DNA of 32,261 nt from an uncultured virus (IMG/VR IMGVR_UViG_2049941000_000847) (IMGVR_UViG_2049941000_000847), one strand, 5' to 3'; positions 9,130 through 26,930 are shown, numbered from the stretch's first letter. Translations and numbers: made by a program. The notes: generated from the sequence alone by a model not told the origin.

Positions 9130-9139
9130 GGAAAATGTA

Positions 9140-9422: not shown

Positions 9423-9435
9423 NNNNNNNNNNCAC

Positions 9436-9762
9436 ATGGAAGACAAGAAAGACACCAACCTGTGGGAAACTGACGACTTGAAAAAACTAAAACCAATGCT
9501 GCATAAAATGTGGAAAGAACGAGAAGAGGAACGCAGAAAGAGAGGAGAACTAGACGAACCAGAACCCACCGCATTGGCCAAGTCTTCGCTACCAACACGA
9601 GAAGAAATAGAAGAGCTGGACAGAATCGGTATTGCGGGTATCATGAAGAAGCGCGAACGGCAGGAACGGTGGGACGCCATTTGGTTTTGGGTCATGGTGT
9701 CGTTGAGCTCCGTTTGTGGCGGCGTCGTGGGCACCGTGCTTTACAGGTTGATATTTGGCTGA
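9436..9762 (+). CDS. tail-anchored membrane protein
   Basis: Charged body with C-terminal TM FWVMVSLSSVCGGVVGTVLY. Confidence 0.65.
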   Translation: MEDKKDTNLWETDDLKKLKPMLHKMWKEREEERRKRGELDEPEPTALAKSSLPTREEIEELDRIGIAGIMKKRERQERWDAIWFWVMVSLSSVCGGVVGTVLYRLIFG

Positions 9763-9792
9763 GGACAGGGTTTAGGAACAAGGAGCTGAGCA

Positions 9793-10143
9793 ATGAGAAA
9801 CCACGACCTTTACAAGCGTTTCGTAGACACCTACCGCCTGCTTTGCGATGACATCGACCGTTTGGACAAAGCGGATGTTTTGGGAAAGGAGATAGTCCTG
9901 GGAGACCTGGGTTGCGACCTGTCTTATTTGAGAGGCCTTATCGACGAGGTTTACGGCGAAGAAGAACCAGCGAATAACAACCGTGCGAGAAGGCTGGCCG
10001 AAATCAAGAAGAAGGATTGCAAAATCAAATACACCTGGACGGAAAGAATCCTGTTCTGGGTGGTTCTCCTTTTCGGCTGTATCGGCGGCGGGTTTGCGGG
10101 ACATATCGTCGGGAATTTCATCAAGACCTTGCTCGGACTATGA
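9793..10143 (+). CDS. tail-anchored membrane protein
   Basis: AAGGAG RBS; C-terminal TM FWVVLLFGCIGGGFAGHIV. Confidence 0.7.
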   Translation: MRNHDLYKRFVDTYRLLCDDIDRLDKADVLGKEIVLGDLGCDLSYLRGLIDEVYGEEEPANNNRARRLAEIKKKDCKIKYTWTERILFWVVLLFGCIGGGFAGHIVGNFIKTLLGL

Positions 10144-10160
10144 CAAACGGGAGAACCTAG

Positions 10161-10531
10161 ATGTCGAAGTGGCTTTACAGACNNNNNNNNNNGCAAAGGA
10201 CCCCGGAAACGGGCTTTGGTATAATTCCCGCAATGAGTATGTTTGGGGTTGCAAGGACTGCCAGGGCGAAGCGAAGAATCTGCCTATGGGATTTGACGAA
10301 AGGTATCATATAGACGGGAAGAATTGGTTTTCCTCTTGTTCCCGTGCCGAGGATTTACTGCATTGGTATAGCAAGGAAGATGCCGAGTTTCTCATGTCTA
10401 ACGGGTTCGTTTTCACACGGTATCTCGCAACCGATTTTCACGAGTTCGACAAGGAAACGGTGTTCTTGAAAGAAACCGCTTTGCAACGGGAAGAGATTGA
10501 TTTTCTGTCGCTTTTTCATCAGGGGCGTTGA
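10161..10531 (+). CDS. hypothetical protein (spans gap)
   Basis: MSKWLYR before the gap plausibly joins KDPGNGLWYN...GFVFTRY after it; GGAG RBS. Confidence 0.6.
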
Positions 10532-10533
10532 GA

Positions 10534-10929
10534 ATGGAACTGACAAAAGAAAACATGCTTGATACCATTTCCGGGATTGCAAAAGACCTGGATGGTGTTG
10601 TTGTGGGCAAAGACAATGACACACTTGCGATATGTAAGAACGGAGAACGACTAATTTCATTGAGTATCCCGATAGATTGCTACCCTTACATGCTGTCGGA
10701 ATACACGTTCCCAAATGGGAAGACTGAGAGAATTATATCCGTGACTTATTCGGTTTACTGCATGGAAATAGAAAGATTTTCCATGTTCTTGAAGCGTCTC
10801 ATATCAGTCTGCGATAAAGCCCATAGGAGCATTTCGGATTTCATCTTGGACAAATCGCGAACGGACAAAGAGATCGCCGATTTTATGCGTGACGTAAACA
10901 AAACGGCCGTAAAGGAGTATTGCGTATGA
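10534..10929 (+). CDS. hypothetical protein
   Basis: ORF continuing the operon. Confidence 0.65.
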   Translation: MELTKENMLDTISGIAKDLDGVVVGKDNDTLAICKNGERLISLSIPIDCYPYMLSEYTFPNGKTERIISVTYSVYCMEIERFSMFLKRLISVCDKAHRSISDFILDKSRTDKEIADFMRDVNKTAVKEYCV

Positions 10930-10972
10930 CAAACCTTGACCCCAGTGTAGTGTTTTTTGTAGGGGGTAGATA

Positions 10973-11269
10973 ATGACCCACGAAGAATACGAAACCAAGA
11001 CCACCTATCTCCAAGAACACCTCGACAAGTGGGGCGCTCAATACGGATTCGACGAACTTGGAAAGCTGGAAAAGGACGGAGTTGAGTTGTTGTATTATGT
11101 TTCCACGGACGAGTTCGACGAGGAAATAAACGCTATTCTGCACGCAAGGAAGGGCAACCAAGTTTCCACGTTCATCTTCACCTTCAACGACCAGAACAAG
11201 GAAATCGACATAGAGGAGATTTTCGGAAAGTTCACGACCGTGGCGAACCTCATGGGAGCGAAACTATGA
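10973..11269 (+). CDS. acidic hypothetical protein
   Basis: 98 aa, D/E-rich; G-rich RBS. Confidence 0.7.
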   Translation: MTHEEYETKTTYLQEHLDKWGAQYGFDELGKLEKDGVELLYYVSTDEFDEEINAILHARKGNQVSTFIFTFNDQNKEIDIEEIFGKFTTVANLMGAKL

Positions 11270-11469
11270 CAGCGAAGGAAGAACTGCTCGCCTGTTTAGA
11301 CCAAAAATATGGTTCCATCGAAAGCGAAGGTTGGAATATTTCGGAAGCCGTCAAAACGGACGACATCATGAGAGCACTTAAAGCGCTGGAAGCTATTCAT
11401 CAGTGCGTATATGACATGGAAAATTTGTTTTTCGAATACCTCGAGCAGAAAACCGAAGAGGAGAAATGA
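11266..11469 (+). CDS. hypothetical protein
   Basis: ATGA overlap, GGAG RBS. Confidence 0.65.
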   Translation: MTAKEELLACLDQKYGSIESEGWNISEAVKTDDIMRALKALEAIHQCVYDMENLFFEYLEQKTEEEK

Positions 11470-11570
11470 GAGATGACCGAACAAGAACTCTACAAGCCGG
11501 CTGAACAGAAGGTCGGGGACCGGTCGATCACGCAGAAGAGAACGGAGAAATTTGGAGAGGACCGCTAACC

Positions 11571-12104
11571 ATGAACAACACCAAAAACCAAACCGGACCA
11601 ATGTTCTTTTTCAAGAAAACCAGGAACGTAAAGACCCCTGAGAGGGCACATCCGACCGATGCCGGTTTGGACATCTTCGTGCCGGAGTTTGACGAGGAGA
11701 TGGCATCGACATTCGTCGCCATCAATCCGGACAATCTGTGCCAAATCTCACCAGAAGGCATTGTAGTCCCGCCAGGAGCATCTGTAAGGGTTCCGATGGG
11801 TATTCATGTTCGTATCCCGGACGGTTGTGCCATGATCTCGTTCAACAAGTCCAGCGTCGCGTCCAGAACTGGGTTCGTCCTCGGCGCTTGCGTCATTGAC
11901 AGCGGATACACGGGCGAAGTAATCGGCAACATGCTAAATACGTCAAACGATGTCAGAAAAATCTCGTTCGGGCAGAAGTTGTTCCAGTCGGTCATAATCC
12001 CGGTCCTTTTCCCCGCGGTAGAAGAGGTCGATGCGGAAACGTATTCCAATCTTCGTCATGAAGGTGACCGTGGCACCGGCGGATTTGGTAGCACAGGAAA
12101 GTAG
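11571..12104 (+). CDS. dut: trimeric dUTPase
   Basis: Motifs I-V: AGLDI, NKSS, VIDSGYTGEV, KLFQ, RGTGGFGSTG. Confidence 0.95.
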   Translation: MNNTKNQTGPMFFFKKTRNVKTPERAHPTDAGLDIFVPEFDEEMASTFVAINPDNLCQISPEGIVVPPGASVRVPMGIHVRIPDGCAMISFNKSSVASRTGFVLGACVIDSGYTGEVIGNMLNTSNDVRKISFGQKLFQSVIIPVLFPAVEEVDAETYSNLRHEGDRGTGGFGSTGK

Positions 12105-12111
12105 GAGAAGA

Positions 12112-12417
12112 ATGATGAAGAGACTTTTCATTTCCCAGCCAATGCGAGACCGAACCGACGAGGAAATCCAGGCCGAGCGCGACAGAATCCTGGAGGAAGT
12201 CAGGGAGAAATACCCGGACGTTGAACCCATCCATTCGTTCTTTCAAGGCGCCAGCAACATGAGCCCGATCGAGTGCCTGGCCGAAGCCCTGAAGCGAATG
12301 GAGGGGGCCGACATCATCTACTTCGCCCCTGGGTGGAACACCGCTCGCGGATGCGTAGTCGAGCATTATGTGGCCGAGCTGTATTTGACGACCGCCATCA
12401 AGATAGAACGGTTCTGA
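12112..12417 (+). CDS. DUF4406 / nucleoside 2-deoxyribosyltransferase-like protein
   Basis: KRLFISQPM...ADIIYFAPGWNTARGCVVEHYVA signature; AGGAG RBS. Confidence 0.8.
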   Translation: MMKRLFISQPMRDRTDEEIQAERDRILEEVREKYPDVEPIHSFFQGASNMSPIECLAEALKRMEGADIIYFAPGWNTARGCVVEHYVAELYLTTAIKIERF

Positions 12418-12520: not shown

Positions 12521-13485
12521 ATGAAGACAAAGCAGGGTGATAACTCGCTGAACGAGATGGCAATCAATCGAGATAAATGGAAAGAGTCCGTCGGCGGAGA
12601 GTTCGAGAAAATAGTTTCGCATATCGGGGCAATTATTTACAATTATCTCGATGAAACCGTTTCCAACGAGGGTACGCGTAATGATTGGGCGCGCGAAATC
12701 GCGACATTTATCAGAAACTCGTCGAGAGATGACATTAAAGAAGGAAACTCAATCGATTATAGACGCAAAGCCGTCAAGGAAGAGTATACTCAAAAGAAAT
12801 ACGATGATGAAAATGTGATTCGAACGATCATCAAAAAGAAAATCAAAAGGTATGACGGGTATAAAAACAAAGCCATATTGGATAGGTGGAGCTCCAAAGG
12901 GGCATCCACNNNNNNNNNNCAGTAATCGAATTGATTGCCAAAAACGTAAACATAAAGAACCCGAAGAGGGGAATGATCGGTGGATTTCAAAAAGAAGGTG
13001 AACTGTTAGAGTTCTCAAAAGATCTAGCAACAACCGGAAAATATATAGTTGAATCGGTTGACTCAATTCATTCTGGAGACGTTGATATCATTAGAGAACT
13101 GAATTACATAATGGATGCTATCATGACATTTTCGTATCGAAGAAATGCGAAGGACATGACAGGAGTTAAGGTCAATTTTGGTAAACGCATGAGAGATCTC
13201 AAAAGAGGGCTCGAAACGGTTAGAAAGATGGGCCTTGGTTCCGACTTTTTTAAACGCGAGATAATACGGGAAACAATAAAGGACAGTGAATTTGACGACA
13301 AGCAAAGGACTGATTGGGCGTTCGCTCAGCTGGCACCACTTAATGGAATGACAGATACTGACACCATCATGAAGGCAACAGACGAGTTCATAAATCTGCT
13401 CCCGGAGATAACCGAGTTGATGACAACCGGAACTGAAGAGGATATTCAGAAGTTTTGCGACAAGGTTTCCAGGGAACGGAGCTAG
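12521..13485 (+). CDS. probable virion-associated protein (two ORF pieces joined across gap 12910-12919)
   Basis: Continuous coding on both sides of the gap; N-terminal LNEMA and internal IVES resemble prohead-protease sites; late-type box upstream. Confidence 0.55.
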
Positions 13486-13520
13486 ATAAAAGAATTAGGA
13501 CTCATATACATAGTTCCACC

Positions 13521-13536
13521 AAAAATACTATATTAT
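13521..13536 (+). promoter_or_regulatory. recurrent phage promoter motif AAAAATACTATATTAT
   Basis: Motif copy; 13521-13546 matches 8707-8732 at 25 of 26 positions. Confidence 0.75.
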
Positions 13537-13543
13537 ATACAGC

Positions 13544-13708
13544 ATGGTGATAACGAAGGGCATTGAGATCAGGCTCTATCCAAGTAAAGGACAGAGAACA
13601 ATGATCAACAAGAATATAGACGGTGCCCGTTTCGCCATAATGTCATGCTTCGCGTCAAAGAAGAACTATATCGAGAATACGGAATCAATTTCGATCCAAA
13701 ATATATAA
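13544..13708 (+). pseudogene. tnpB: frameshifted, truncated TnpB (IS200/IS605 OrfB) N-terminal remnant
   Basis: MVITKGIEIRLYPSKGQRTMINKNIDGARFA; restoring one base near 13636 gives YNVMLRVKEELYREYG, completing the RLYP...RFxYN HTH_OrfB_IS605 pattern. No RuvC or Zn-finger part follows. Confidence 0.7.
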
Positions 13709-13725
13709 ATCCAAGGATGGTACAC

Positions 13726-14166
13726 ATGACGAATTTCGAAAAGTGGAAGAATTCCATCGCGGCGAAGGATCTCACCGACACTAAGCACAGGTGTGCGTGT
13801 TTTCTCGACGGAGCATGCCGCTTTTGTCCGGCCGACAAGTTTTGCCCGAAGGGCAGCTCAGACGGTTCTACCTGCGCTGACATATTTTTAAAGTGGGCGA
13901 ATGCCGATGCTGATGAGGGGATCTGTGGCATTGACCATGGTGATCAGAATGGCGACGAGAGAGTCGTCGTCACGAGGTTTGACGGTGATGTCGTTTCCAA
14001 CGAAACGGTCCGGGAAAAAGACAATGACGGTGCAAACGAAGTTTCCGGTGTAGACGGGTGGTACGACGAACTTCTAGCTTTGGCGAAAAAGGATCGAGAT
14101 CTCGCACACATCATGCGCCTGGAACGCGAGATGCGGGAAAGAGACGAAGCTGGGAGCGCGAAATGA
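13726..14166 (+). CDS. MTNFEKW-family Cys-rich protein with acidic C-terminal extension
   Basis: MTNFEKWK..CRFCPADKFC..C..FLKWANAD; AAGGA RBS supports the 13726 start. Confidence 0.75.
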   Translation: MTNFEKWKNSIAAKDLTDTKHRCACFLDGACRFCPADKFCPKGSSDGSTCADIFLKWANADADEGICGIDHGDQNGDERVVVTRFDGDVVSNETVREKDNDGANEVSGVDGWYDELLALAKKDRDLAHIMRLEREMRERDEAGSAK

Positions 14167-14363
14167 CGAACTTCGAGAAATGGAAGGCCGGGCTTACGGC
14201 AGAAAAAATGCTAAACGCCGTCAAGCGAGTACAGAAAGTTGGACGAAGCAGCCGTTTTTGTTGCTTCTGCCCGGCTCAATATTCGTGTTCCGCCGTAAAT
14301 GACGAAGAGTGCAACGAACATATAATGGCTTGGGCGAACGCCGAGGCCAAGGAGAAGCGATGA
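14163..14363 (+). CDS. MTNFEKW-family Cys-rich small protein
   Basis: MTNFEKWK..CCFCPAQYSC..C..MAWANAE; ATGA overlap. Confidence 0.8.
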   Translation: MTNFEKWKAGLTAEKMLNAVKRVQKVGRSSRFCCFCPAQYSCSAVNDEECNEHIMAWANAEAKEKR

Positions 14364-14599
14364 GCGTTACAAATCAAGACAACCAAAAGATAAACGAACT
14401 GGTTTCGCTCATCCAGCAGCTGGTTTTGCAGATCGAACGCGTTTCCGACAGCGACCACGAACGCGCGAAGAATCTTCTTGCCAAACTCGATGATTGCATC
14501 GACTGTCTGGAGGGGTTCGAGGTGTTCCGCGGTTGCATGAGCCTTCGCATGCTTCGAGACAACATGAACGAGGTGCGCGACAGACTGAACGACGGGTGA
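14360..14599 (+). CDS. hypothetical protein
   Basis: ATGA overlap, AAGGAG RBS. Confidence 0.65.
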   Translation: MSVTNQDNQKINELVSLIQQLVLQIERVSDSDHERAKNLLAKLDDCIDCLEGFEVFRGCMSLRMLRDNMNEVRDRLNDG

Positions 14600-15021
14600 T
14601 GGGAATGGGAATCAAGGTAAAGGACGACAGACTCGATTGGTCGGCTCCGTGCCCGATATGCGACGCGCGTATCTGGGAAAACGACCGCAAGGTGACGAAG
14701 ACCGAGGACGGTGTTCTGAAATATCGCTGCCCCGGTTGCAAGCACATCGTGTTCCGCGGTCCTGTAAACGATTTCTTTTTCGCCTGGGACCCATATGCCA
14801 AGGAGGAAATCCAAGGCGAACCCGGCGAGGTGTGCGAACGCGATGTCTCCATCATCATGTTTGTGATCCGCTGGATAATGAAGATTGTTTTAGTGTTGCT
14901 TGACCGAAGGAACAACCGGAAGTACAAGCGCATGCGAGAGGACAAAAAACTGTTCGATGAAGCTAGGGTTCGCAGGATTCGTAGAATCAGAGCAAATCTT
15001 GAAAACGAGGGGAGCAACTGA
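14599..15021 (+). CDS. Zn-ribbon-containing hypothetical protein
   Basis: CPIC...CPGC pair, then a hydrophobic stretch and basic tail. Confidence 0.6.
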   Translation: MGMGIKVKDDRLDWSAPCPICDARIWENDRKVTKTEDGVLKYRCPGCKHIVFRGPVNDFFFAWDPYAKEEIQGEPGEVCERDVSIIMFVIRWIMKIVLVLLDRRNNRKYKRMREDKKLFDEARVRRIRRIRANLENEGSN

Positions 15022-15185
15022 TGCTCATTGCCATTTTTGTACTTCTTATTCTCATTTTCTCCGCCGTCTGCATCTTTGGTTGGCACATATTCGACACGCT
15101 GGTCGATATCTTCGGAGTCCTTGTCGACATCCTGGACATCATGTGGGAGCGCAAGCTGAAGGAATATAAGGAGAACGACAAATGA
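15021..15185 (+). CDS. small membrane protein (54 aa, below the ORF-track cutoff)
   Basis: MLIAIFVLLILIFSAVCIFGW...; TGATG and ATGA overlaps with both neighbours; GGAG RBS. Confidence 0.65.
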   Translation: MLIAIFVLLILIFSAVCIFGWHIFDTLVDIFGVLVDILDIMWERKLKEYKENDK

Positions 15186-15595
15186 TTGACCATGTTGTTC
15201 AGTTTGACATCGCCACAGGAGAAAAAATCTGTGGTCTAAGCAGGGAGGCGCTGACGGAAGCTCTTTGCTGGGCATACGAACATCCATATGACGTTGANNN
15301 NNNNNNNCAGAAAAAGTTCATGGACATGATGACCCCGCCGCCGGAAGCAAAAAAGCGGAGCAACGGAAACGGCGCCGCCGGCAAGTACTGCATTCTCGTT
15401 CAGTGGTGCGACGGGACGCTTTACAGGGATTTGAGTAGGACAGCGGACACGCCGGACGAGCTTGTCAAGATGCTTACATGGGATGAGAGGCGTTTTGCCG
15501 ACATCAAAATCCACTACGCCGAGGTTTCCAACGAGGCGTACCCAGTGCTTGGTTCGGACAGGAGAACAAGGGAATGGTTGAGGAGAGACCGATGA
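15182..15595 (+). CDS. hypothetical protein (spans gap)
   Basis: AAGGAG RBS, coupled start and stop. Confidence 0.55.
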   Translation: MIDHVVQFDIATGEKICGLSREALTEALCWAYEHPYDVXXXXQKKFMDMMTPPPEAKKRSNGNGAAGKYCILVQWCDGTLYRDLSRTADTPDELVKMLTWDERRFADIKIHYAEVSNEAYPVLGSDRRTREWLRRDR

Positions 15596-15777
15596 CCGGT
15601 GACGATGGGTACATGATCCGCGTCGAGATACCTGGCACGAACCGCGCCATTGGCATCAGTATGCAGCTTCTCGACCATTTCCCGGCAAATGACATCTGGA
15701 AAGAGGTCGTGGATTTTTCCAGAGACCCAGATGGATATGTGCCTGGCATTTGGATCGATGTTGAACGCATGAAATAG
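15592..15777 (+). CDS. hypothetical protein
   Basis: GAGGAG RBS, ATGA overlap. Confidence 0.6.
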   Translation: MTGDDGYMIRVEIPGTNRAIGISMQLLDHFPANDIWKEVVDFSRDPDGYVPGIWIDVERMK

Positions 15778-15798
15778 TGTAGGATCGCATCCGATCCG

Positions 15799-15814
15799 GA
15801 AAATACTATATTGT
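15799..15814 (+). promoter_or_regulatory. recurrent phage promoter motif GAAAATACTATATTGT
   Basis: Intergenic motif copy 14 nt before the ATG at 15829. Confidence 0.7.
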
Positions 15815-15828
15815 TGGAAAGGCGTCAC

Positions 15829-16272
15829 ATGAAAACACAAGAAGAACTTGTCAAAGAGATGGAGAATAGAAACGAGGCAAGCGCAATATACCGCGCCCTG
15901 CCGATGGTGGACTACGCGCTCATCGAGGTGCACAGAGTTGCTGACGCGTTGGGTGTCCTCGAAAAGGACGTTGACGGCCGCAATGCACAACATCCTGTGA
16001 ACTCGGCTTTGGTCCACATAGCAAAGGCCCAATCTCTTCTTAGAGACCACGCAGACAAGCTGGTTGGAATTGTTCGGTCCACCGGAGAAGAGAATAAGCA
16101 GTCTGGAGTAGAAACAATTACAATTAATCCGTACCGTGAATGGCATTGCCCGAAGTGCGGGTCCATCATAATCGCCGCGCACACGTACAAGAATGACGAG
16201 ATGGTATGCAGCTGCGGAGAAAAGATCGACCCGTTCTACTCGGTTCCTTGCAACAATAGGGGATGCCGATGA
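15829..16272 (+). CDS. helical protein with C-terminal Zn ribbon
   Basis: WHCPKCG...CSCG. Confidence 0.7.
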   Translation: MKTQEELVKEMENRNEASAIYRALPMVDYALIEVHRVADALGVLEKDVDGRNAQHPVNSALVHIAKAQSLLRDHADKLVGIVRSTGEENKQSGVETITINPYREWHCPKCGSIIIAAHTYKNDEMVCSCGEKIDPFYSVPCNNRGCR

Positions 16273-16497
16273 AAAACTGGAAGAAATGGATCAAAAGTCT
16301 TGACATAGAGCNNNNNNNNNNCGAACACAGACGCTTTCCGCGATCCGGGCGATTCGGTCTGCGCTCGTTGTCCGGCGCAAAGCACTTGTCCGTTGTATCA
16401 CAACGACCTTAGCAATGAGGAGAGAACTGTCGAACAGGTGTGCAATGAACATTTCGTCAAATGGTCAATGGGAGAAGCGGAGGAAACGAAATGCTGA
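16269..16497 (+). CDS. MTNFEKW-family Cys-rich small protein (spans gap; absent from the ORF track)
   Basis: MKNWKKWIKSLDIE-[gap]-..CARCPAQSTC..VCNEHFVKWSMGEAEETKC*. Confidence 0.7.
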
Positions 16498-16868
16498 CCT
16501 ACATAAACTTCAAAGAAGATGGAAAGTTCGAGTATAATGATGGATTCTCGTGCGGTTTGTTTTACCGCATTCCCACACGTGAAACCATCCTGCACCATTG
16601 TTCCGACGATTGGCGTGACGAGCGAGATGTTTGGATTGGGAACAGGAAGGATTCCAAGGCGAGGTATGTGCGAGACCAATGGATTAAGTTTTTGGAAGAA
16701 TTTGAATCGGGCGATGTGAAGCATGGAGTGCGGCTTGGTTGGTTCGATGAGAGCGAGGGCAAGGTTGTTGCCGAGATTGAGAAGTTCCGTGCCGCTCTAC
16801 GCAAGATTGGCTACGATGTCGATGACAGAATCGTGGAGGAGATTTTCAAGCTGGAGGGCGAGAAATGA
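16491..16868 (+). CDS. hypothetical protein
   Basis: GGAGG RBS before the ATG at 16491. Confidence 0.7.
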   Translation: MLTYINFKEDGKFEYNDGFSCGLFYRIPTRETILHHCSDDWRDERDVWIGNRKDSKARYVRDQWIKFLEEFESGDVKHGVRLGWFDESEGKVVAEIEKFRAALRKIGYDVDDRIVEEIFKLEGEK

Positions 16869-16979
16869 ACNNNNNNNNNNCGTTGCCGAGATTGAGAAGT
16901 TCCGTGCCGCTCTATGCAAGATTGGCTACGATGTTGATGACAGAATCGTGGAGGAGATTTTCAAGCTGGAGGGCGAGAA

Positions 16980-17375
16980 ATGAACCTTGAACAGATTGCC
17001 GCTACTTTGGGAGCAGAAGAAAAAGCTAGGCGCATGCGCGAAGAAAAAGAAAAGCGTCGGCAAGAAAAAGAGGAATTGAGGAAGCGCAAAAAAATCCTTG
17101 AAGCGAAAGAAAACCTTTGTCTGCGTTTTCGCAAACACGACAATCTCTTCGGATGCGTTTGCGATGGCCGTTGTCCGCTAGCGCAGATAAAGGTTTCGGG
17201 AAGCGGTGGATATGAATGTGCTGAAATCCACGATAGGGACTTCACAACGAACTACCTCTACGATGCGATTACCACGGACGGCTGGACGCCGCCGGACGAC
17301 TGGAAACGTCCAGAACACAGAGAGATTTGCCGCTCGTTTTACTCCAACATGAAAAACAAGGAGGAAACCAAATGA
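16980..17375 (+). CDS. hypothetical protein (charged helix plus Cys cluster)
   Basis: C..CxCxxxCPL..C pattern; coupled stop. Confidence 0.65.
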   Translation: MNLEQIAATLGAEEKARRMREEKEKRRQEKEELRKRKKILEAKENLCLRFRKHDNLFGCVCDGRCPLAQIKVSGSGGYECAEIHDRDFTTNYLYDAITTDGWTPPDDWKRPEHREICRSFYSNMKNKEETK

Positions 17376-17752
17376 CAGATTACAAGAAAGTGTATGAAGA
17401 TTTGAAGGCGTTTATCATAGGCCAAGCCGATGAACTGCCGAAAGACAAGTATAAGTATGAATGGTATGAGAACGGCGGACAACACAAAGAGTTCACGATA
17501 CTTCTGGGATTTGTGGGTGAAGCATCCAATATCTATAATTGTCGTATAGAGCTGATTCATAAAAAGCACTATTCCCCTGATTGGAGTCCGGAACCTTTTC
17601 CAGACACAGAACATGTATTGCTGAGGTGGGAGGACAAAGACGACAGTGCAGTTATGGCCAAAAATGAAAAAGAAGAAAAGAGGCAGGTGGACAAAATGAA
17701 GAAAAATTTGAGAGAAATGTTCAAAGGTTTCAAACTTTCGGAGAATAAGTGA
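17372..17752 (+). CDS. hypothetical protein
   Basis: AAGGAGG RBS, ATGA overlap. Confidence 0.7.
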   Translation: MTDYKKVYEDLKAFIIGQADELPKDKYKYEWYENGGQHKEFTILLGFVGEASNIYNCRIELIHKKHYSPDWSPEPFPDTEHVLLRWEDKDDSAVMAKNEKEEKRQVDKMKKNLREMFKGFKLSENK

Positions 17753-18210
17753 GTATGTTAAACACATTGAAGAATCTGTTTTCTCGCGCCACGCCACAAG
17801 AGGAAAAAGAACCGAAAAGATTCACTCTAGGCGCTTCGTATTTGATGTTCTCGTCCTACAGAAAAACGCTCGACAGCATCAAGACCTTCGTTGTTGATAG
17901 TGGTTTCAAGGAAACGTACCATAGGGTTTATGGAAATGAGATGCTTATCAACGAACATGACGAAACCTGGTATGAACTAGGAGACATTCACTTCATACTG
18001 GATGGAATTTTAAGCGGATATGCAATGCCCGGCAGTCAATATCCGTCCATTTTTGTTTTGATACACCGCGGGAACATCGTTGAAGGGCCGTATAAAGAGC
18101 TCTTCAACAGAAACTTTGAGTTCAATCTTAGCACATTTGATTATGGTGAATTGTTTTGTGCTGGCATCAAAAAGGCGGTAGAAGAAGCCATGAAGGAGGA
18201 AACAAAATGA
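17749..18210 (+). CDS. hypothetical protein
   Basis: GTGA overlap; ends EETK, which encodes the next RBS. Confidence 0.7.
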   Translation: MSMLNTLKNLFSRATPQEEKEPKRFTLGASYLMFSSYRKTLDSIKTFVVDSGFKETYHRVYGNEMLINEHDETWYELGDIHFILDGILSGYAMPGSQYPSIFVLIHRGNIVEGPYKELFNRNFEFNLSTFDYGELFCAGIKKAVEEAMKEETK

Positions 18211-18431
18211 AAAACAAGAACGACAAAGAAATGCATCTTTCTTGGATGTGCAAAAAGTGCAAATGCTACACTAAATCGTTGTCTTGCCGTGCACCGAAGT
18301 GTCCCATTTGCCAAAGCGACATGAGCGGCATTGATCGCAGTAAAGATTGGGAGAAATGGGTGGAATGGAGGAAGGAACACGAGTTCTTTCTGTATGTCCC
18401 TGAAAGCAAGATGTATAGGAGAAAGAAATGA
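18207..18431 (+). CDS. small Zn-ribbon protein
   Basis: CKKC...CPIC; AAGGAGG RBS. Confidence 0.7.
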   Translation: MKNKNDKEMHLSWMCKKCKCYTKSLSCRAPKCPICQSDMSGIDRSKDWEKWVEWRKEHEFFLYVPESKMYRRKK

Positions 18432-18640
18432 CGAATTGGGAGGAATATAGAAACGACAGTCTTTCCGTTGATAATTTCGCGGAACTTGTCGAGGAGCATC
18501 ATCGTATTTGTGGAGAGAACTGCTGCAAGAGGTTCTGTCCTCTTCGCAATTGCGGAATGGAAAAATACTTGGATGCTGACTGCAAAGAACAAATCGTCGA
18601 ATGGGGGAACTGGCCAACTCCAACATTGGAGGATGAATGA
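18428..18640 (+). CDS. MTNFEKW-family Cys-rich small protein
   Basis: MTNWEEYR..CCKRFCPLRNC..CKEQIVEWGN. Confidence 0.75.
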   Translation: MTNWEEYRNDSLSVDNFAELVEEHHRICGENCCKRFCPLRNCGMEKYLDADCKEQIVEWGNWPTPTLEDE

Positions 18641-18837
18641 CGAACTTCGAAAAATGGAAGGCTGCACTGAATGCTAACAACTCGGCATATATAGGTGAAG
18701 CACTTGCCGCACTTGACAGAGGCCGATGCACCTTCTGTCCAGCCAGACACCATGAGCTGGTTATGGATTATGGAATTATTTGTAGTGAATGTTGGGAGGA
18801 ATGGGCGAACACCGAGACCGAGGAAGAACCCAAATGA
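18637..18837 (+). CDS. MTNFEKW-family Cys-rich small protein
   Basis: MTNFEKWK..CTFCPARHH..CSECWEEWANTE. Confidence 0.8.
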   Translation: MTNFEKWKAALNANNSAYIGEALAALDRGRCTFCPARHHELVMDYGIICSECWEEWANTETEEEPK

Positions 18838-19352
18838 CACATTGCGTTGAATCCTTTTCAAAAGAGGACTTGGATACACTCAAGACGGAGTTCGGCAAGA
18901 TGTATTATGGACCCGGACCGAGAGTGACATTATACATTTGTGATGGAAACAAAAGTGTAGAGATATACCACGACACTCATTGCAGATACCTTGTAAAGTT
19001 TTATGGATCGGAATCCGTTGACCATATAGAGCAGACTATAGGTGAATGTATACAAACCATACGGAAAAAGGAAAAAGAGTTTTTCGTTTGCATGGATAAA
19101 ATGAACAGCTTCATCGATATCATAAAATCCGGTCTGATGGACATCGGCAAATGCAAGGGAATGCTCGCCCACATGCCATTGGACTTTATCGAAATGTTCG
19201 TAGATGAAGAAAAGAATAACATTGTGAATTTCCGACCGTTCCGTCAGAAGGCGTATTTTATAGACAAATGTGGTGTTGCATACGTCGAGACTGTCATAAA
19301 CAATGAAAACGCGCATAAGATGCTAGAATTTATAGGAGATTCCATCAAATGA
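18834..19352 (+). CDS. hypothetical protein
   Basis: ATGA overlaps at both ends. Confidence 0.7.
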   Translation: MTHCVESFSKEDLDTLKTEFGKMYYGPGPRVTLYICDGNKSVEIYHDTHCRYLVKFYGSESVDHIEQTIGECIQTIRKKEKEFFVCMDKMNSFIDIIKSGLMDIGKCKGMLAHMPLDFIEMFVDEEKNNIVNFRPFRQKAYFIDKCGVAYVETVINNENAHKMLEFIGDSIK

Positions 19353-19570
19353 AAACGAACTTTGACAAATGGAAGGAAAGTTGGACACCGGAATCGGCCG
19401 GTGAGGCGATGTCCGAAGGTTATCCTTATTGGTGCGGAAATTGTCCTTGCAAGAAACGGTGCGAGGAGTTGGACGACGGTTACGACGGCTGCATCCAGGC
19501 TCACACCGAATGGATGAAGGAAGAAGCCGACGAGGAGTGGTGGAAAAAGGCAGAAGAACAAGGGATTTGA
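19349..19570 (+). CDS. MTNFEKW-family Cys-rich small protein
   Basis: MKTNFDKWK..CGNCPCKKRC..CIQAHTEWMKEE. Confidence 0.78.
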   Translation: MKTNFDKWKESWTPESAGEAMSEGYPYWCGNCPCKKRCEELDDGYDGCIQAHTEWMKEEADEEWWKKAEEQGI

Positions 19571-19621
19571 CAAAGAGGCGACATACTGGCAAACTTTGAG
19601 AAACATGAAGGAGAACAACGA

Positions 19622-19978
19622 ATGACCAACTTCGAGAAGTGGAAGTCTGGACTGACTGCGGAGAATTGCGAGCGTTTCATGCTTGCAGTATTGCAACAGG
19701 TTTTCCCAGATTTTAAACTGACAATCCCCAAAGAAGCGAGTGAGAAATTTCTCGCCTGGGCGAACGCCGAAACCGATGAGGAGGAAACGAAATATATCGT
19801 CCGTTGCGAAGCAGACGTCGGTGCTTGTATGTTCAGTTCTTTTTGGAATGGAAGAACTTTCGAAAAGGGAGAGGAAAATGCAAAGGTGTTCCACAGAAGG
19901 GAGTCTGCCGAAGAGGAGTTGAATCGGTTTGGATATTCCAAAAGAGACTATTCGATCCTGAAGACAACGGAGCTATAA
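19622..19978 (+). CDS. MTNFEKW-family protein lacking the Cys cluster, with a fused C-terminal module
   Basis: MTNFEKWKSGLTAE..FLAWANAE..EEETK, then about 60 more residues. Confidence 0.75.
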   Translation: MTNFEKWKSGLTAENCERFMLAVLQQVFPDFKLTIPKEASEKFLAWANAETDEEETKYIVRCEADVGACMFSSFWNGRTFEKGEENAKVFHRRESAEEELNRFGYSKRDYSILKTTEL

Positions 19979-19980
19979 AG

Positions 19981-20331
19981 ATGAACATGGAAGAGTTCAC
20001 CGAGTATTCGAAGACAGAGTGGACAAAGATTCAAGAAAGGCTGGACGCGCTGGCAAAGAAAAATTGCTGGAAGGCCGAGCTATTCAAGGACAATTGCGTG
20101 TCTAGTTCTTGGTCTATTTGCATAAGAAACAACAATAGATGCGTCGTTGGCGGGTTCACAATTCCGGGATACATCAAGCTAATGTTAGTTGACACGGCAA
20201 CGCATGACGAGGGTAAGTTCGTCGTCGGACGCAAGAGCGATTTCAAGCACATCGTCCCATACACAAAGGAGTGGTTGACGGAAGATGTGATCGAAAATTG
20301 GAAGATGCCCGAGACTGAGGAGACGAAATGA
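19981..20331 (+). CDS. hypothetical protein
   Basis: GGAG RBS; ends EETK. Confidence 0.65.
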   Translation: MNMEEFTEYSKTEWTKIQERLDALAKKNCWKAELFKDNCVSSSWSICIRNNNRCVVGGFTIPGYIKLMLVDTATHDEGKFVVGRKSDFKHIVPYTKEWLTEDVIENWKMPETEETK

Positions 20332-20540
20332 CCGCGAAAGACAAGGTTAAGACTCTTATATCCGTTGACCGAGTGCTAAGCAAAGCCATCAGGCATAGCG
20401 AAGCAAGGCTTGCGCTACAACTTGAACGCGCCGCGTCTAAGCTTGGCTACGATTGTTTGCAAGCCTATCTATTCGGGAAGAAACTTGCCCACGAGATCGT
20501 CGACGAATGGGCGAACGAGGAAACGAGGGAGGAAAAATGA
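20328..20540 (+). CDS. small protein ending in the family-like EWANEE motif
   Basis: ATGA overlap; C-terminus IVDEWANEETREEK. Confidence 0.65.
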   Translation: MTAKDKVKTLISVDRVLSKAIRHSEARLALQLERAASKLGYDCLQAYLFGKKLAHEIVDEWANEETREEK

Positions 20541-20632
20541 CACCCATTGAAGAGTTTGTAATGGCTTTTTTATCTATCGGTATCACTCTTTACCTTTTGT
20601 GTGCTTTGAGAGACCTCCTGTCTGTTTTTTGA
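20537..20632 (+). CDS. 31-aa single-TM peptide
   Basis: GGAGG RBS, ATGA overlap, MTPIEEFVMAFLSIGITLYLLCALRDLLSVF. Confidence 0.5.
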   Translation: MTPIEEFVMAFLSIGITLYLLCALRDLLSVF

Positions 20633-20642
20633 GGGAACATTT

Positions 20643-20852
20643 ATGACGAATTTTGAGAAGTGGCGCCAGACAGTAAGGCCGGAACAACTGGCAGATTTAT
20701 TCAGCAATTTGAACTCTGATGCATGCATTAACTGCCCCGCTAATGGGTTCTGCAACGTGGATGAATATGACGGCATGGAAGATCCAACACTTGTCAGCTG
20801 CTGCCGAGGGGAGTTCCTTAAGTGGGCAAACACCGAGTCGGAAAAACGTTAA
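20643..20852 (+). CDS. MTNFEKW-family Cys-rich small protein
   Basis: MTNFEKWR..CINCPANGFC..CCRGEFLKWANTE. Confidence 0.8.
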   Translation: MTNFEKWRQTVRPEQLADLFSNLNSDACINCPANGFCNVDEYDGMEDPTLVSCCRGEFLKWANTESEKR

Positions 20853-20872
20853 AGACGCATAGGAGACATTTC

Positions 20873-21247
20873 ATGATTATTCGTGGATTCAAACCCGGTA
20901 ATGTGTATGTAAAACAAAGAATGGTGCAAGCCCCTGTGTTTTCGAATGTACCATCCTATCCTGTATATGAAGGGACTGAAATGGAACCCTCGTCGCTCAT
21001 CATAGATTTTGACTATCCCGGCGAAATGATTGAGTTCAAGAAAAATTTTGACAAGATATGTAACGGGGAACTTAGTGCCAAGATAGACATCGTATTCCAC
21101 GAACCAAAGAAGTATGATCCACCGAAGGAGAAAAGCGCGGAACAGCTCGCGAAAGAACTTGCAGAACTAATGGCTGAAGGAGATGTTCTGCGAGAGGAAA
21201 CAAAGAAACTACTCGGAATACCGCTGGGAGACGACTTCGACGAGTGA
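20873..21247 (+). CDS. hypothetical protein
   Basis: AGGAG RBS before the ATG at 20873. Confidence 0.7.
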   Translation: MIIRGFKPGNVYVKQRMVQAPVFSNVPSYPVYEGTEMEPSSLIIDFDYPGEMIEFKKNFDKICNGELSAKIDIVFHEPKKYDPPKEKSAEQLAKELAELMAEGDVLREETKKLLGIPLGDDFDE

Positions 21248-21352
21248 ATTCGTGCCAAAATCGGAGTTGAACATGCGAAAGTTGTATTGCTGCTTGTCAA
21301 GTGCGGGTACGAAACCGACGCATATCTCGACCTGTATTGAGATTCCCGCCGA

Positions 21353-21369
21353 GAAAAATACTATATTGT
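21353..21369 (+). promoter_or_regulatory. recurrent phage promoter motif GAAAAATACTATATTGT
   Basis: Exact 17-mer copy of 6104-6120; TTGAGA upstream. Confidence 0.75.
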
Positions 21370-21407
21370 AGATGACTGGTGAAATCAAATGAACCTAGAG
21401 GTCAGAA

Positions 21408-21632
21408 GTGTCCGACGTTGAAATCTACGAATTGGCAAGCTGGTTGGGAGATACCGAGACCATGTTTTCCATATTCGAAAAGAAAAACACCCCGGAACTC
21501 GACCGCAAGCTGTTCGATGACGATCTCGTCGCGTACTACTGCGACAACTACCACTTCTTCTACGACATCGGAGACCACCTGTTAGACATTTTCGGGCAGG
21601 AACTCAAGTTCGTGATGGATATGGCCGGCTAG
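21408..21632 (+). CDS. small, strongly acidic protein
   Basis: GAGGT RBS with GTG start; rich in D/E and aromatic residues. Confidence 0.65.
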   Translation: MSDVEIYELASWLGDTETMFSIFEKKNTPELDRKLFDDDLVAYYCDNYHFFYDIGDHLLDIFGQELKFVMDMAG

Positions 21633-21667
21633 TTTCCAAAAACACACAAAAAACTAAAGGAGAGACC

Positions 21668-22168
21668 ATGTCGATCGAACGAGAAAAGCTCAACAGATTC
21701 AAGTGTGCCGTACTTCTGGGGGAGCTGAAGGAGACCTTCTCCAGAATCTACGACAACTACAAGGAAGCGTACAACTTCCTGAAGAGCAACGGACGCAAGA
21801 CGGACGAGCTAAATCTCTGCGTGGGAACCGCCAGGGTCAGCGGATACTTCGACGTCGCGGACGGGAAGATAGTCTCCGACATGTGCGACGGCTTCTACAA
21901 GATCGGAATCACCGCTAGCGTCGACATCAACTATGGCGGAATCGTCCTGGTCGGATGCAGCAAGCAGCTGGGGGCGGAATCAATCCCGCTCGATCTAACC
22001 GACTTCGACGCAGTGCTCGATGTTTTAAAAGAAGGGCTTCCACGCAAATTCCCGGGCAACACCAAGAGCCACGCCCTCCATGAATACCGGACCGTTCTCT
22101 CCATTTTCGCGGAGAACATGAACTTCTTCGAGAAGGAAGTCGGCAAGAAGATACGGGAAACCCTCTGA
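21668..22168 (+). CDS. hypothetical protein
   Basis: AAAGGAG RBS, 166 aa. Confidence 0.75.
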   Translation: MSIEREKLNRFKCAVLLGELKETFSRIYDNYKEAYNFLKSNGRKTDELNLCVGTARVSGYFDVADGKIVSDMCDGFYKIGITASVDINYGGIVLVGCSKQLGAESIPLDLTDFDAVLDVLKEGLPRKFPGNTKSHALHEYRTVLSIFAENMNFFEKEVGKKIRETL

Positions 22169-22343
22169 CAAGGACAACGCGATGCAACACGACACCTGTA
22201 CAAACACCACACTGATCGAGGCGTTCATGGGGACCGTATACTCCAGGCACCCTCACGATCTCCAGCCAGGCATGCCAGACAAGATGCCAGGCGGCGAGAA
22301 TGGAAGAAGAAGAAAGTTCGCGGAGTCTCTGACATTTAGGCCG

Positions 22344-22360
22344 GAAAAATACCATATTAT
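22344..22360 (+). promoter_or_regulatory. recurrent phage promoter motif variant GAAAAATACCATATTAT
   Basis: One mismatch to consensus; CTGACA upstream. Confidence 0.65.
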
Positions 22361-22406
22361 ACATTGAGGCCATTAAGATAGACAAGCTTACCAAAGGAGA
22401 AGCAAA

Positions 22407-22721
22407 ATGACGAAAAATCACAAACTCTATGAAGACATCAAAAACGCAATCACGCCCGTTCTGGAGGAATTCTGCTTCGAGCTAAATGACAGCAGTGCCC
22501 GCTCAAGGGTCAAGTCCAGGACGGAGGAGGTTTTGAAAACCTTCCACGACGCCGGCAGATTCGACAGGTTCGCCGTGACCTGCAACGAATTCAACAACAT
22601 CCCTGGCGTCGTCGACAACATGCTCATCATGGACGTCGACATGTCAAACACAGGTTTGAAGAGTCATACAAAGATCCGTTTCTCGATCAGGCCGTCCGGA
22701 ACAGACTGTCAGGAAGCTTAG
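22407..22721 (+). CDS. stand-alone contractile tail sheath C-terminal domain-like protein
   Basis: FELNDSSARSRVK..L..F..G..DRFAVTCNEFNNIPGVVD..parallels sheath C-termini (FEPND..R....L.....G..DF.V.CDE.NNTP.VID); own AAAGGAG RBS. Confidence 0.7.
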   Translation: MTKNHKLYEDIKNAITPVLEEFCFELNDSSARSRVKSRTEEVLKTFHDAGRFDRFAVTCNEFNNIPGVVDNMLIMDVDMSNTGLKSHTKIRFSIRPSGTDCQEA

Positions 22722-22854: not shown

Positions 22855-23709
22855 ATGGCATACAAGATTTTCAACGAAGATTGTTTTGAGTGGATGGGGA
22901 AACAGTCCGAGAACACGATAACCGCCATTGTAACAGACCCTCCATACGGCGTGAAGGAATACACCTCCAAGGAACTCGCCAAGAAGAGATCCGGTTCAGG
23001 AGGCATCTGGCGCATTCCGCAGAAATTCGACGGCTGCACCCGCCAACCCGTTCCAAGGTTCAGCGTGATCAACGACGACCCCGAAGAGAGAAAGAACGTC
23101 TCCCTCTTCTTCGAAAACTGGGCGAAACTGGCAAAAAGGATAATAGTCCCCGGCGGACACATATTCATAGCGGCGACACCCCTCCTCTCCGACCTCGTCA
23201 GCGCGGCTCTCAGATCGGCCGGATTGGAAAAGAGGGGAGAGATAATCCGCACAGTCCACACCCTGAGAGGCGGAGACCGTCCAAAAGGAGCCGAAAAGGA
23301 ATTCCAAGACACATCCGTCATCCCGAAAGCGCAATGGGAACCCTGGCTATTGTTCAGAAAACCATTGTCCGAGAAAACCGTCGCGGAAAATCTCAGAAAA
23401 TGGAAAGCCGGTGCCCTGAGAAGACCAGGAACAGACAAACCATTTTGCGATTTCATTCCCAGCGGGAAAACTCCCAAAACGGAGCGTGAAATCGCAAACC
23501 ACCCGAGCATAAAGCCACAAGCCTTCATGAGACAGATAGTCCGCGCCTCCCTGTCACTCGGAGAAGGAATCGTGTTGGATACCTTTTCAGGCAGCGGATC
23601 CACAATAGCGGCAGCTGAATACATTGGATATGACAGCATAGGGGTGGAGATGGACCAGGAGTTCTATCAGCAGTCCCTGACCGCCATACCTAAATTGGCC
23701 AAATTATAA
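22855..23709 (+). CDS. beta-class N6-adenine/N4-cytosine DNA methyltransferase (orphan)
   Basis: TDPPY near the N-terminus, HPSIKP, LDTFSGSGST and IGVE near the C-terminus; no nuclease gene next to it. Confidence 0.92.
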   Translation: MAYKIFNEDCFEWMGKQSENTITAIVTDPPYGVKEYTSKELAKKRSGSGGIWRIPQKFDGCTRQPVPRFSVINDDPEERKNVSLFFENWAKLAKRIIVPGGHIFIAATPLLSDLVSAALRSAGLEKRGEIIRTVHTLRGGDRPKGAEKEFQDTSVIPKAQWEPWLLFRKPLSEKTVAENLRKWKAGALRRPGTDKPFCDFIPSGKTPKTEREIANHPSIKPQAFMRQIVRASLSLGEGIVLDTFSGSGSTIAAAEYIGYDSIGVEMDQEFYQQSLTAIPKLAKL

Positions 23710-24040
23710 GTGGTCGTTTCCATTTCGGAAACAATTGAATACCGCAGAAGATCGTAGTCTTCGTCTGAACGGACAAATTAACATGTTTCAAAACGAAACA
23801 TGGGGAGACCGGTATATGAATGTATACAAACCATACGGAANNNNNNNNNNNNNNNNNNNNNNNNNNNNNNNNNNNNNNTGAAAAACGAGATTCGGGTCCC
23901 AAAAAACACCCCCGGTGGGGTATTCGGAAGGGGGTATACAAAAATGGTGTTATATTGGCATTTATTGGCAATATCTGATGATATATTGCCAGTTGCAGGT
24001 GGTTTTGGATAAATGAAGAAGAAGAAGAAGNNNNNNNNNN

Positions 24041-24349
24041 ATACCTCCGTCATCCCGAAAGCCCTGTGGGAACCATGGCTATTGTTCAGAAAACCATTGT
24101 CCGAGAAAACCGTCGCGGAAAACCTCAGAAAATGGAAAGCGGGCGCTCTGAGAAGACCTTCCACCGACAAGCCGTTCTGCGATTTCATCCAAAGCGAGAA
24201 GACGCCGAAAATCGAAAGAGACATCATGAACCACCCGAGCATCAAGCCGCAGTCGTTCTTGAGGCAAGTGGTCCGAGCTTCTTTGCCGCTTGGAGAAGGC
24301 GTCGTACTTGACACGTTTTCCGGGAGCGACACCAATTGCGGATACCTTG
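24041..24349 (+). other. diverged partial second copy of the methyltransferase on a small contig between gaps
   Basis: TSVIPKALWEPWLLFRKP...LDTFSGS parallels 23309-23598 with many substitutions, then diverges. Confidence 0.7.
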
Positions 24350-24515
24350 NNNNNNNNNNGTTTCCCTGGAGTTCCATAGTTTTTCCTGGTTTTGCCTGGT
24401 TTTGCGCGGCTGCGCTGGTTGGAGGCTGGAGGTGGGATAGTTTTTTGGGAAGATGGAATTAATCGATCGGTAAACCCTAGGTTGTATACTTTAACTAAAA
24501 TATCCCAAAGGGCTT

Positions 24516-24976: not shown

Positions 24977-25018
24977 GGCCTTGTGTTCCCCTCCCCAGGG
25001 TTACCACAATGGGGAAAC

Positions 25019-25066
25019 AGGCCTACTGCGTTGGGCAGTATAGGGGGTTCGACTCCCCCTAGGCCT
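25019..25066 (+). ncRNA. tRNA-like three-way junction with T-loop (not a full tRNA)
   Basis: aggcc[tactgc-gttgg-gcagta][taggggg-TTCGACT-cccccta]ggcct. Confidence 0.5.
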
Positions 25067-25163
25067 CTATGAGGTGAATACTTTCACCTCAAAGCACTCT
25101 ATGAGGTCTGCACTTTGCCTCATATGGTGCTAAATCAACTCAAAGTGCAAAAAGGAGAGCACT

Positions 25164-25642: not shown

Positions 25643-25918
25643 NNNNNNNNNNTGCTGCGGCTCGCAAGGCCGAAGGTAAGGTCTACGAGTCCAAGAAGGA
25701 GTGGGTCGTGGGATACGGTCCCGTGAAGACGGGGGCTCATCTCCCCTGCACTGACGGGACTGACAGCCCGATTGAGGTCACTTCTCAGGCTGGCGTCCTC
25801 CTTGCCGACAANNNNNNNNNNCCGCGAAGAGTTTGAGCAGTCGTATGATAGAGAGTGACCACTGAAGAGGGTTCACGGTGAACCCTCGGTTTCCAACCCC
25901 CAAACAAGGAGAAAAGCC

Positions 25919-26929: not shown

Positions 26930-26930
26930 G

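Follow-up and report, generated by a model that had tools for sequence, protein, structure and literature searches.

A widespread, undescribed phage mini-domain is expanded in copy number in an uncultured virus

Background

New counter-defence and host-takeover functions tend to come from the small accessory proteins of uncultured phages, which mostly cannot be grouped into families. The window analysed here is a 32,261 nucleotide (nt) stretch of DNA from an uncultured virus (IMG/VR IMGVR_UViG_2049941000_000847). Eight open reading frames (ORFs) within positions 13,726–20,852 (7 kb) of the window form one family with a domain of ~65 amino acids (aa), characterised by an N-terminal MTNFEKWK motif, Cys residues in the middle and a C-terminal WAN-x-E motif.

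WhiB-like (Wbl) proteins (PF02467) of actinobacteria and actinophages, for example TM4 gp49, are helical proteins with a G[VI]WGG turn and a basic tail. The likeness to the present family lies in small size (~70–100 aa), carriage by phages and a local C-x2-C-P-x4-C sequence with a fourth Cys. There is, however, no detectable homology; Pfam matches are below cut-off and the fourth Cys is downstream in the family. By eye, neither the G[VI]WGG turn nor the basic tail is seen in the family, and WhiB has no MTNFEKWK or WAN motif.

The zinc ribbon is a β-hairpin knuckle fold. A section of a jumbo-phage review describes the expansion of a small zinc ribbon to ~35 copies in Bacillus phage G, where the copies are guessed to be transcription factors or DNA-binding proteins (PMC7824862, Iyer et al. 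2021). As described there, the likeness is that of many small Cys-rich paralogs in one large phage genome, with a function that is only guessed. The phage G family is a zinc ribbon, whereas the family in the window is predicted to be all-helical. A literature search on small cysteine-rich paralogous phage proteins returned this review as the only relevant source.

The T-even phages' internal proteins are described in a passage of PMC3012670 as very diverse, sharing only a capsid targeting sequence, and some are anti-restriction proteins. In common with them, as that passage presents them, the family has a short conserved N-terminal motif on diverse small proteins of an accessory region. It differs in that the C-terminus is conserved too, the N-terminal motif is part of the predicted fold, and there is no protease site or virion association on record.

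Family members in the window

A sequence-only reading of the window had placed members of the family at eight starts between 13726 and 20643, with a C-terminus-only relative at 20328. ORFs are present at all nine starts, all on the + strand, and are designated M1 to M9. A family hidden Markov model (HMM), A3, matched eight of these in a six-frame translation of the whole window, with E-values from 3.8e-21 to 9.9e-7. M1, M3 and M7 were not in the A3 seed alignment; the other five matched ORFs were, and so match by construction. No further members were found elsewhere in the window by the A3 HMM in six frames, a weak match at 30671–30853 being out-of-frame noise. At the DNA level, the degenerate motif ATGACNAAYTTYGARAARTGG (≤3 mismatches) occurs 6 times in the window, always on the + strand and at starts listed below. 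The shuffle expectation for this motif is 0.02, and 6 occurrences were reached in none of 100 shuffles. P-numbers below are family proteins retrieved by the searches.

M1, 13726..14166, +: 146 aa with 7 Cys; family domain in residues 1–65 (to ~13920), then a ~80-aa C-terminal tail; HMM E 1.3e-19; ortholog P0022, 95% over 146 aa
M2, 14163..14363, +: canonical, 66 aa; ATGA overlap with M1; HMM E 3.8e-21; orthologs P0003 (94%) and P0004 (92%)
M3, 16269..16497, +: 72 aa, MKNWKKW variant; HMM E 9.9e-7; 94% to P0012
M4, 18428..18640, +: divergent, 70 aa, MTNWEEYR ... EWGNW; HMM E 1e-11; ortholog P0010, 96%
M5, 18637..18837, +: 66 aa, shifted ligand set C-x2-C ... C-x2-C; ATGA overlap with M4; HMM E 1.8e-18; P0006, 80%
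M6, 19349..19570, +: 73 aa, MKTNFDKWK ... EWMKEE; HMM E 9.8e-18; P0005, 92%
M7, 19622..19978, +: Cys-less member, residues 1–57 (to 19792), fused in frame to 61 more residues; HMM E 6.5e-9
M8, 20328..20540, +: doubtful relative, in which the C-terminal ...EIVDEWANEETREEK alone is family-like; P0082, 63% over 51 aa
M9, 20643..20852, +: canonical, 69 aa; HMM E 1.7e-20; P0007, 94%
Array, 12521..22721, +: ~10 kb, ~35 small + strand genes including the family; an accessory, hyperplastic region

M3 is interrupted by a run of 10 N at 16312–16321 that is absent from the contigs of two other metagenome runs (X6 and X10); read across the run of N, M3 is an intact 72-aa member. M7 keeps both conserved ends without the Cys ligands and is aligned to the family by hhalign with a probability of 98.5% over residues 1–57. 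M8 was not matched by the A3 HMM, and hhalign gave a probability of 54% over 19 C-terminal columns; its membership in the family is not established.

The sequence-only reading had described a variable sequence around four Cys/His ligands. At least four Cys are present in 7 of the 9 ORFs, and by eye M1, M2, M3, M6 and M9 have C-x2(3)-C-P-x4-C with a distal C-x3-hydrophobic-x2-W, as does M4 with its spacing altered. M5 has its C-x2-C ... C-x2-C set instead and M7 is without Cys; the C-x2(3)-C-P-x4-C motif is missing from M7 and M8. Seven of the nine proteins are acidic, with isoelectric points (pI) of 4.45–5.04.

Within the array there are 12 ATGA stop/start overlaps between 13,726 and 20,540, and at the array overlaps a GGAGGA-like ribosome-binding site lies inside the last codons of each upstream gene. 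KEETK or TEETK is likewise the C-terminus of unrelated array genes at ATGA overlaps. The family's acidic EE(T)K tail is therefore largely a consequence of the next gene, whose ribosome-binding site and ATGA start overlap it; the W-A-N residues are not explained in this way. The members form a real, diversified set of paralogs with conserved ends, as had been proposed, although part of the C-terminal conservation belongs to the neighbouring gene's translation signal. A hydrophobic 31-aa ORF (20537–20632, +) is ATGA-coupled to M8. The relative P0082 has a hydrophobic N-terminal segment, an M8-like part and a family member in a single ORF.

The family at large

The consensus of the family is MTNFEKWK..LT.E, a variable helix, C-x2-C-P-x4-C, 5–12 residues and C-x3-F-x2-W-A-N-x-E. 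A profile made from seven window members matched 507 protein clusters at E≤0.001, 19 of these at E≤1e-10, among 1.84 billion representatives, and a word-index search gave 21 matches. No source database names the retrieved family proteins; the ESM Atlas clusters are all 'hypothetical protein' and mostly viral. The proposal that the locus holds an undescribed system is borne out in that there is no curated family match, but the system is not locus-specific, being a widespread phage family. The finding is a copy-number expansion of a widespread, undescribed phage mini-domain, and it is the copy number that is unusual here.

The pattern C-x2-C-x(3-8)-C-x(3-40)-C-x3-hydrophobic-x2-[WF] fits 126 of 158 retrieved proteins, a count that leaves out P0032 and P0100 (repetitive, low complexity) and P0056 (3003 aa, not inspected). 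In the motif-bearing proteins the spacing between the second and third Cys is exactly 5 in 111 of 126, and a Pro follows the second Cys in 118 of 126. Conservation reaches ≥90% of members for T2 and N3 and ≥70% for N59. The middle of the domain is tolerant, with Cys-less and hydrophobic forms occurring between the same ends. Cys-less variants are M7 and P0020, and the C-x2-C ... C-x2-C ligand set of M5 is shared by P0006 and P0042. In L002:9576-10001, P0095 and P0132 the family N-terminal motif is followed by a hydrophobic, apparently membrane-spanning middle which by eye resembles two membrane helices; P0095 ends in FLKWANEESK.

Tandem-fused doubles are also found (P0001, P0025, P0041, P0089, P0102, P0107 and P0120). 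These, with the P0001 model described below, suggest that the domains pair. No longer fused form scored when these were sought with A3, and a Pfam scan of 31 longer or fused matches found no informative extra domain. More distant relatives (P0116, P0129 and P0149), retrieved by profile at ~1e-7, read MTNYERIKTM..DELADFL ... C.GCP....C ... WL.E. They share the N-terminal helix, the CxxCP motif and a C-terminal W-containing helix with the family and differ in the letters of their N- and C-terminal motifs; they are unannotated too. We take relatives of this MTNYERIKTM type to be common in prophages.

The nine ORFs and 100 family members had no match at useful E-values in Pfam, NCBIfam or PHROGs, so the family does not correspond to a characterised domain in these libraries, a correspondence that would have spoken against the sequence-only reading. 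The sole library families touched were phrog_2999 and phrog_22292, both of unknown function, by 5 and 3 of 100 members respectively at E≤0.01. These matches are weak (best 4.4e-4), the two families are unannotated, and window members do not reach them at E<0.5. Recurrent weak matches to DDE_Tnp_1_6, Whib, Fer4_20 and MSC cover only ~20 residues around CxxCP and are read as motif resemblance. Curated zinc finger (zinc ribbon) families gave only sub-threshold matches, such as DZR_2 at E 0.024 for M5, and were set aside, the model being all-helical. A ranthipeptide-type precursor was also rejected; freyrasin_like was reached by 2 of 100 members (best 7.8e-4), and no radical SAM protein was found in the 43 window ORFs scanned. 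In the GenBank phage collection there was no match by megablast of the region or by tblastn with M2, P0069 and P0129; with 60-aa queries such a search has low sensitivity, and its result does not show that the family is absent there. No close relatives were retrieved from IMG/VR with two neighbouring window proteins as queries, and a full-text literature search for the mtnfekw motif string returned no papers.

Copy number and context in other genomes

A true relative of the window was found in G001, a 132-kb IMG/VR record in which positions 100262–104874 are syntenic with window positions 6979–12417 at 73–96% amino-acid identity. At the syntenic place G001 is without the 12.5–22.7 kb array, and only one full member and one ORF with the N-terminal motif alone are present there. 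Other viral records have 1–3 copies each. The expansion is thus specific to the lineage of the window.

Exact-motif matches in 185,579 species genomes numbered four, of which three are true members, on contigs labelled as Fibrobacter, Kiritimatiellia and Treponema metagenome-assembled genomes (MAGs). The members on these contigs sit beside SSB, or between integrase and primase. On the Treponema MAG-labelled contig (L021:1792-4920) the member lies between integrase and primase/helicase genes in what resembles a small integrative element. Elsewhere, two small contigs have members placed 0.4–1.5 kb upstream of the large terminase gene, two loci have them near methyltransferases, and in G001 one adjoins a nucleoside deoxyribosyltransferase and RuvC.

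Predicted fold and metal site

AlphaFold2 predicts a confident four-helix fold for M2 from a 100-sequence alignment (mean predicted local distance difference test (pLDDT) 86.8, predicted template modelling score (pTM) 0.69), with helices at residues 3–9, 13–24, 31–34 and 47–59; nothing in the models speaks against the common fold that had been proposed. The tandem double P0001 was modelled with a pLDDT of 85.7 and a pTM of 0.75. In both models the N-terminal helix is part of the predicted fold (block pLDDT 95). DSSP marks single-residue β-bridges in P0001 at residues 3, 58, 66 and 119. In each half, these positions correspond to the N-terminal motif's T and to the second residue past WAN. Although DSSP gives no pairing partners, this model suggests that each half has its N-terminal motif joined to its C-terminal one. 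Adjacent termini would account for the conservation of both ends and for a middle that can be replaced.

Foldseek against BFVD matched uncharacterised phage proteins only (E≥0.6). A profile search of PDB sequences gave three matches at E≤10, to eL40, eS27 and glycerate kinase, with E-values of 0.2–1.6. T4 endonuclease VII appeared twice in the structure searches at Z 3.6–3.7 and was taken as a chance match.

The sequence-only reading had assumed zinc, but the spacing of the Cys residues is compatible with more than one metal. A passage of PMC5462746 gives Cys-X14-22-Cys-X2-Cys-X5-Cys as the [4Fe-4S]-binding motif of WhiB proteins, and an excerpt of PMC1636449 gives the same CX2CX5C spacing as belonging to a Zn-binding sequence in Bacillus subtilis DnaI. 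A full-text search for literature that pairs C-X2-C-X5-C with 4Fe-4S found no papers. On a rough split, Zn is probably the metal by a modest preference, an Fe-S cluster is a substantial minority possibility, and a site that binds neither is improbable. The variants with shifted ligands or no Cys favour a metal site that would be structural and dispensable.

Conservation of the copies and mosaicism of the array

The paralogs in the window are 25–54% identical over 50–68 aligned residues. In other assemblies there are orthologs at 92–96% for M1, M2, M3, M4, M6 and M9; the best for M5 is 80% and there are none for M7. The listed differences of M3 in another strain are four, and all four are on third codon positions. 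It follows that the copies are old and that each is under purifying selection. The hypervariable middles of the sequence-only reading are therefore seen as diversity between paralogs, but six of the members are conserved from assembly to assembly. Targets of a diversity-generating retroelement were considered and rejected: a scan of the 43 larger ORFs showed no reverse-transcriptase domain, the only long repeat pair is a scaffold artefact, and the orthologs are at 92–96%.

The array is mosaic between strains. Comparison was confined to the parts of the region with contig cover. M7 is replaced by 28 nt in one strain contig (X10), with the joint at 19609->19977. Another joint connects 16484, 13 nt short of the M3 stop, with 20399 through 184 intervening letters of other sequence. 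Loose ends lie exactly at the start codons of M9 (20643; X5 and X6) and M3 (16269; X10), and one contig is without the middle of M9 (20688->20842). Gene order is thus not static, differing between strains and between relatives.

These cassette-level differences are what would be expected if, as the sequence-only reading had suggested, the ends were conserved as DNA homology anchors for the shuffling of the cassettes between them, and by our own count a family gene boundary is no more than 25 nt away from 7 of the 16 joint endpoints. Each joint is, however, one contig with a depth of 3–9, and because the conserved ends attract partial alignments at 80% likeness this count is biased. Breakpoints are also located at unrelated gene boundaries (17372, 15761 and 13521) and inside genes. 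All five synonymous sites of T-N-F-E-K vary among the five exact-motif copies, and those of W-A-N do likewise, so there is no DNA-level homogenisation and little exact homology; the repeat blocks in the window are 62–95% identical over 20–45 nt. The ends are therefore conserved as protein and not as DNA anchors, and the anchor explanation is considered very unlikely. The locus is neither a hypervariable nor a recombination-driven system. It is hardly credible that the copies are decaying duplicates or artefacts of ORF calling that have no function. M7 is Cys-less and fused, M1 is tailed, M9 is a remnant in one strain and P0014 resembles M3 but continues in a different frame, all of which decay would produce, but six members have full-length orthologs at 92–96%, the M3 differences are at third positions, the ORFs are unbroken and have ribosome-binding sites as well as coupled starts, and the family spans 507 clusters.

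Proposed function of the expanded family

The reading preferred here is that of a lineage-specific expansion of an unannotated phage mini-domain (~60–70 aa), the paralogs of which form a panel of stoichiometric binders of host or phage molecules. The chances that this is correct are put at about even. The proteins are small, mostly acidic and predicted to be helical, and are encoded in a translationally coupled accessory operon; most of the acidic tail stems from the next gene's ribosome-binding site. As modelled, the N-terminal motif and the C-terminal WAN-x-E may pack as a clasp that closes the domain. The four Cys would bind a structural metal, either Zn or an Fe-S cluster, and so tie the loop to the last helix, leaving the variable second helix and the loop exposed. 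There is no catalytic signature, and the proteins most likely serve host takeover, regulation or counter-defence by binding macromolecules of the host or the phage stoichiometrically. The 8–9 diverged copies would then be a panel of binders in which different paralogs supply different specificities. The Tad3-like gene, dUTPase and methyltransferases nearby provide an accessory context for binders of this kind.

Several points weigh against this. There is no characterised member of the family, and no partner, metal or phenotype is on record. The AlphaFold runs used one shared alignment and are not independent proof of a common fold across the members. No informative structural neighbour was found for either model, the best Foldseek match in PDB having an E-value of 7.5 and the best Z in the VIA-wide searches being 4.3 and 3.7. 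M2 (pI 8.69) and M8 (pI 7.88) are not acidic. The mixed contexts of the family, upstream of terminase, between integrase and primase or by SSB, fit a regulator as well as an inhibitor.

A regulator of a particular kind would be a WhiB-like Fe-S protein, with a [4Fe-4S] cluster on C-x2-C-P-x4-C and the distal Cys, that would dock on the transcription machinery of the host, perhaps on a sigma factor, and redirect it, with the paralogs as alternative regulators. The predominant spacing of 5 and the Pro after the second Cys invite this comparison, since the WhiB motif, as given in that passage of PMC5462746, has the same spacing, and the TM4 WhiB protein gp49 aligns over exactly this motif (15 residues; MCMRCPLLDEC in comparison with FCCFCPAQYSC). 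Both are small, helical and phage-borne, the L002 family member and TM4 WhiB are each just upstream of a nucleoside deoxyribosyltransferase gene, and the source habitat, as judged from the bovine gut runs, is anaerobic. Homology to WhiB is nonetheless not found; the hhalign probability is 6.8%, Pfam Whib was touched by 1 of 100 members at E 0.02, P0102 scored 17 bits against the Whib cut-off of 23.6, and WhiB was not among the PDB profile matches. The fourth Cys is 5–12 residues downstream in the family and upstream in WhiB, the spacing is also that of the DnaI Zn-binding sequence in the excerpt of PMC1636449, and the M5 ligand set and the Cys-less M7 and P0020 fit a dispensable structural metal better than a sensing cluster. 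It is therefore unlikely that these are WhiB-like regulators. Another view of the same variants is that the ends would form a tag for docking or targeting that carries the middle as its cargo, as in the T-even internal proteins, and brings diverse middles to one shared site in phage or host, such as the capsid, from which they would be injected. The same ends do flank unrelated middles, be it a Cys knuckle, the Cys-less helices of M7 and P0020 or the hydrophobic stretches of L002:9576-10001, P0095 and P0132, and the conserved polar residues T2, N3 and N59 exceed the needs of a hydrophobic core. The N-terminal helix, however, lies within the modelled fold, and nothing points to a cleavage site. 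Small phages and integrative elements have the family as a single gene among early or replication genes, and the Pfam and PHROGs scans found no structural genes adjoining the array. Delivery as a tagged cargo is accordingly rather improbable. A further possibility, which we regard as a long shot of much the same order, is that the clasped ends are a universal docking handle with an exchangeable middle (metal knuckle, plain helices or hydrophobic stretch), making the domain a natural display scaffold, possibly with a WhiB-like Fe-S site outside the actinobacterial phages.

The family, defined by a single motif, covers at least 507 sequence clusters and has a confidently predicted fold without a structural neighbour, a predicted closure of the termini that is unusual, and natural variants with and without the putative metal site. 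The window is from a large rumen phage that has eight diverged, individually conserved copies and a Tad3-like anti-Thoeris gene in the same + strand series. The function of one member, once found, could annotate hundreds of phage genes. Were the docking handle to prove true, phages would present many payloads to a common host or virion site by means of one handle.

The array and neighbouring genes

The window is phage-like, with a RuvC-like resolvase and two large minus-strand proteins matched in PHROGs. DNA near-identical to the window was found in four runs labelled bovine gut metagenome, which are flagged as possibly its source, with related pieces in runs from other studies. The Tad3-like anti-Thoeris gene (279 aa; 6136–6975, +) matches Pfam Tad3, a type I Thoeris inhibitor, at E 3.6e-15 with 56 bits against a cut-off of 27, and is at the head of the + strand gene series that contains the array. 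A dUTPase, DNA methyltransferases and an AAA_5/DUF2201 pair are also present in the window (Pfam, PHROGs). Scans for promoters and terminators were uninformative: 30 promoter-like sites were counted where 18.3 would be expected, and 19 terminator-like ones where 17.7 would be.

There are 20 runs of N in the window, and ORFs that cross them need care. Those at 16312–16321 and 16871–16880 look like unmerged scaffold joins. A 104-nt stretch is duplicated with 98% identity on the two sides of the 10-N run at 16871–16880 (16767–16985). Other small array ORFs that are not of the family have zinc-ribbon-like CxxC pairs (14599–15021, 15826–16272, 16980–17375 and 18207–18431, all +), for example CPICD...CPGC, CPKCG...CSCG and CKKC...CPIC.

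An N6/N4 DNA methyltransferase (22855–23709, +) is followed by a second, partial methyltransferase-like ORF (24013–24462, +) in a stretch broken by runs of N. The G+C content is 0.52–0.61 over 25000–32261, compared with 0.42–0.50 in the array, the exception being a bin of 0.42 at 27001–28000 that contains a 196-N run. The pair of an AAA_5 ATPase and a DUF2201 metallopeptidase/VWA protein is located in 25000–32261, and its matches in G001 are only 25–28% identical. This part of the window may be a module with an origin of its own, or a join made in scaffolding.

Of the minus-strand genes at 3191–6013 and 1172–3154, one encodes a 940-aa protein in which a Fib_succ_major domain scores 30.7 bits, below the cut-off of 33.9. 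This domain, together with the family member in the Fibrobacter MAG-labelled contig (L019), is a weak hint of Fibrobacter as the host.

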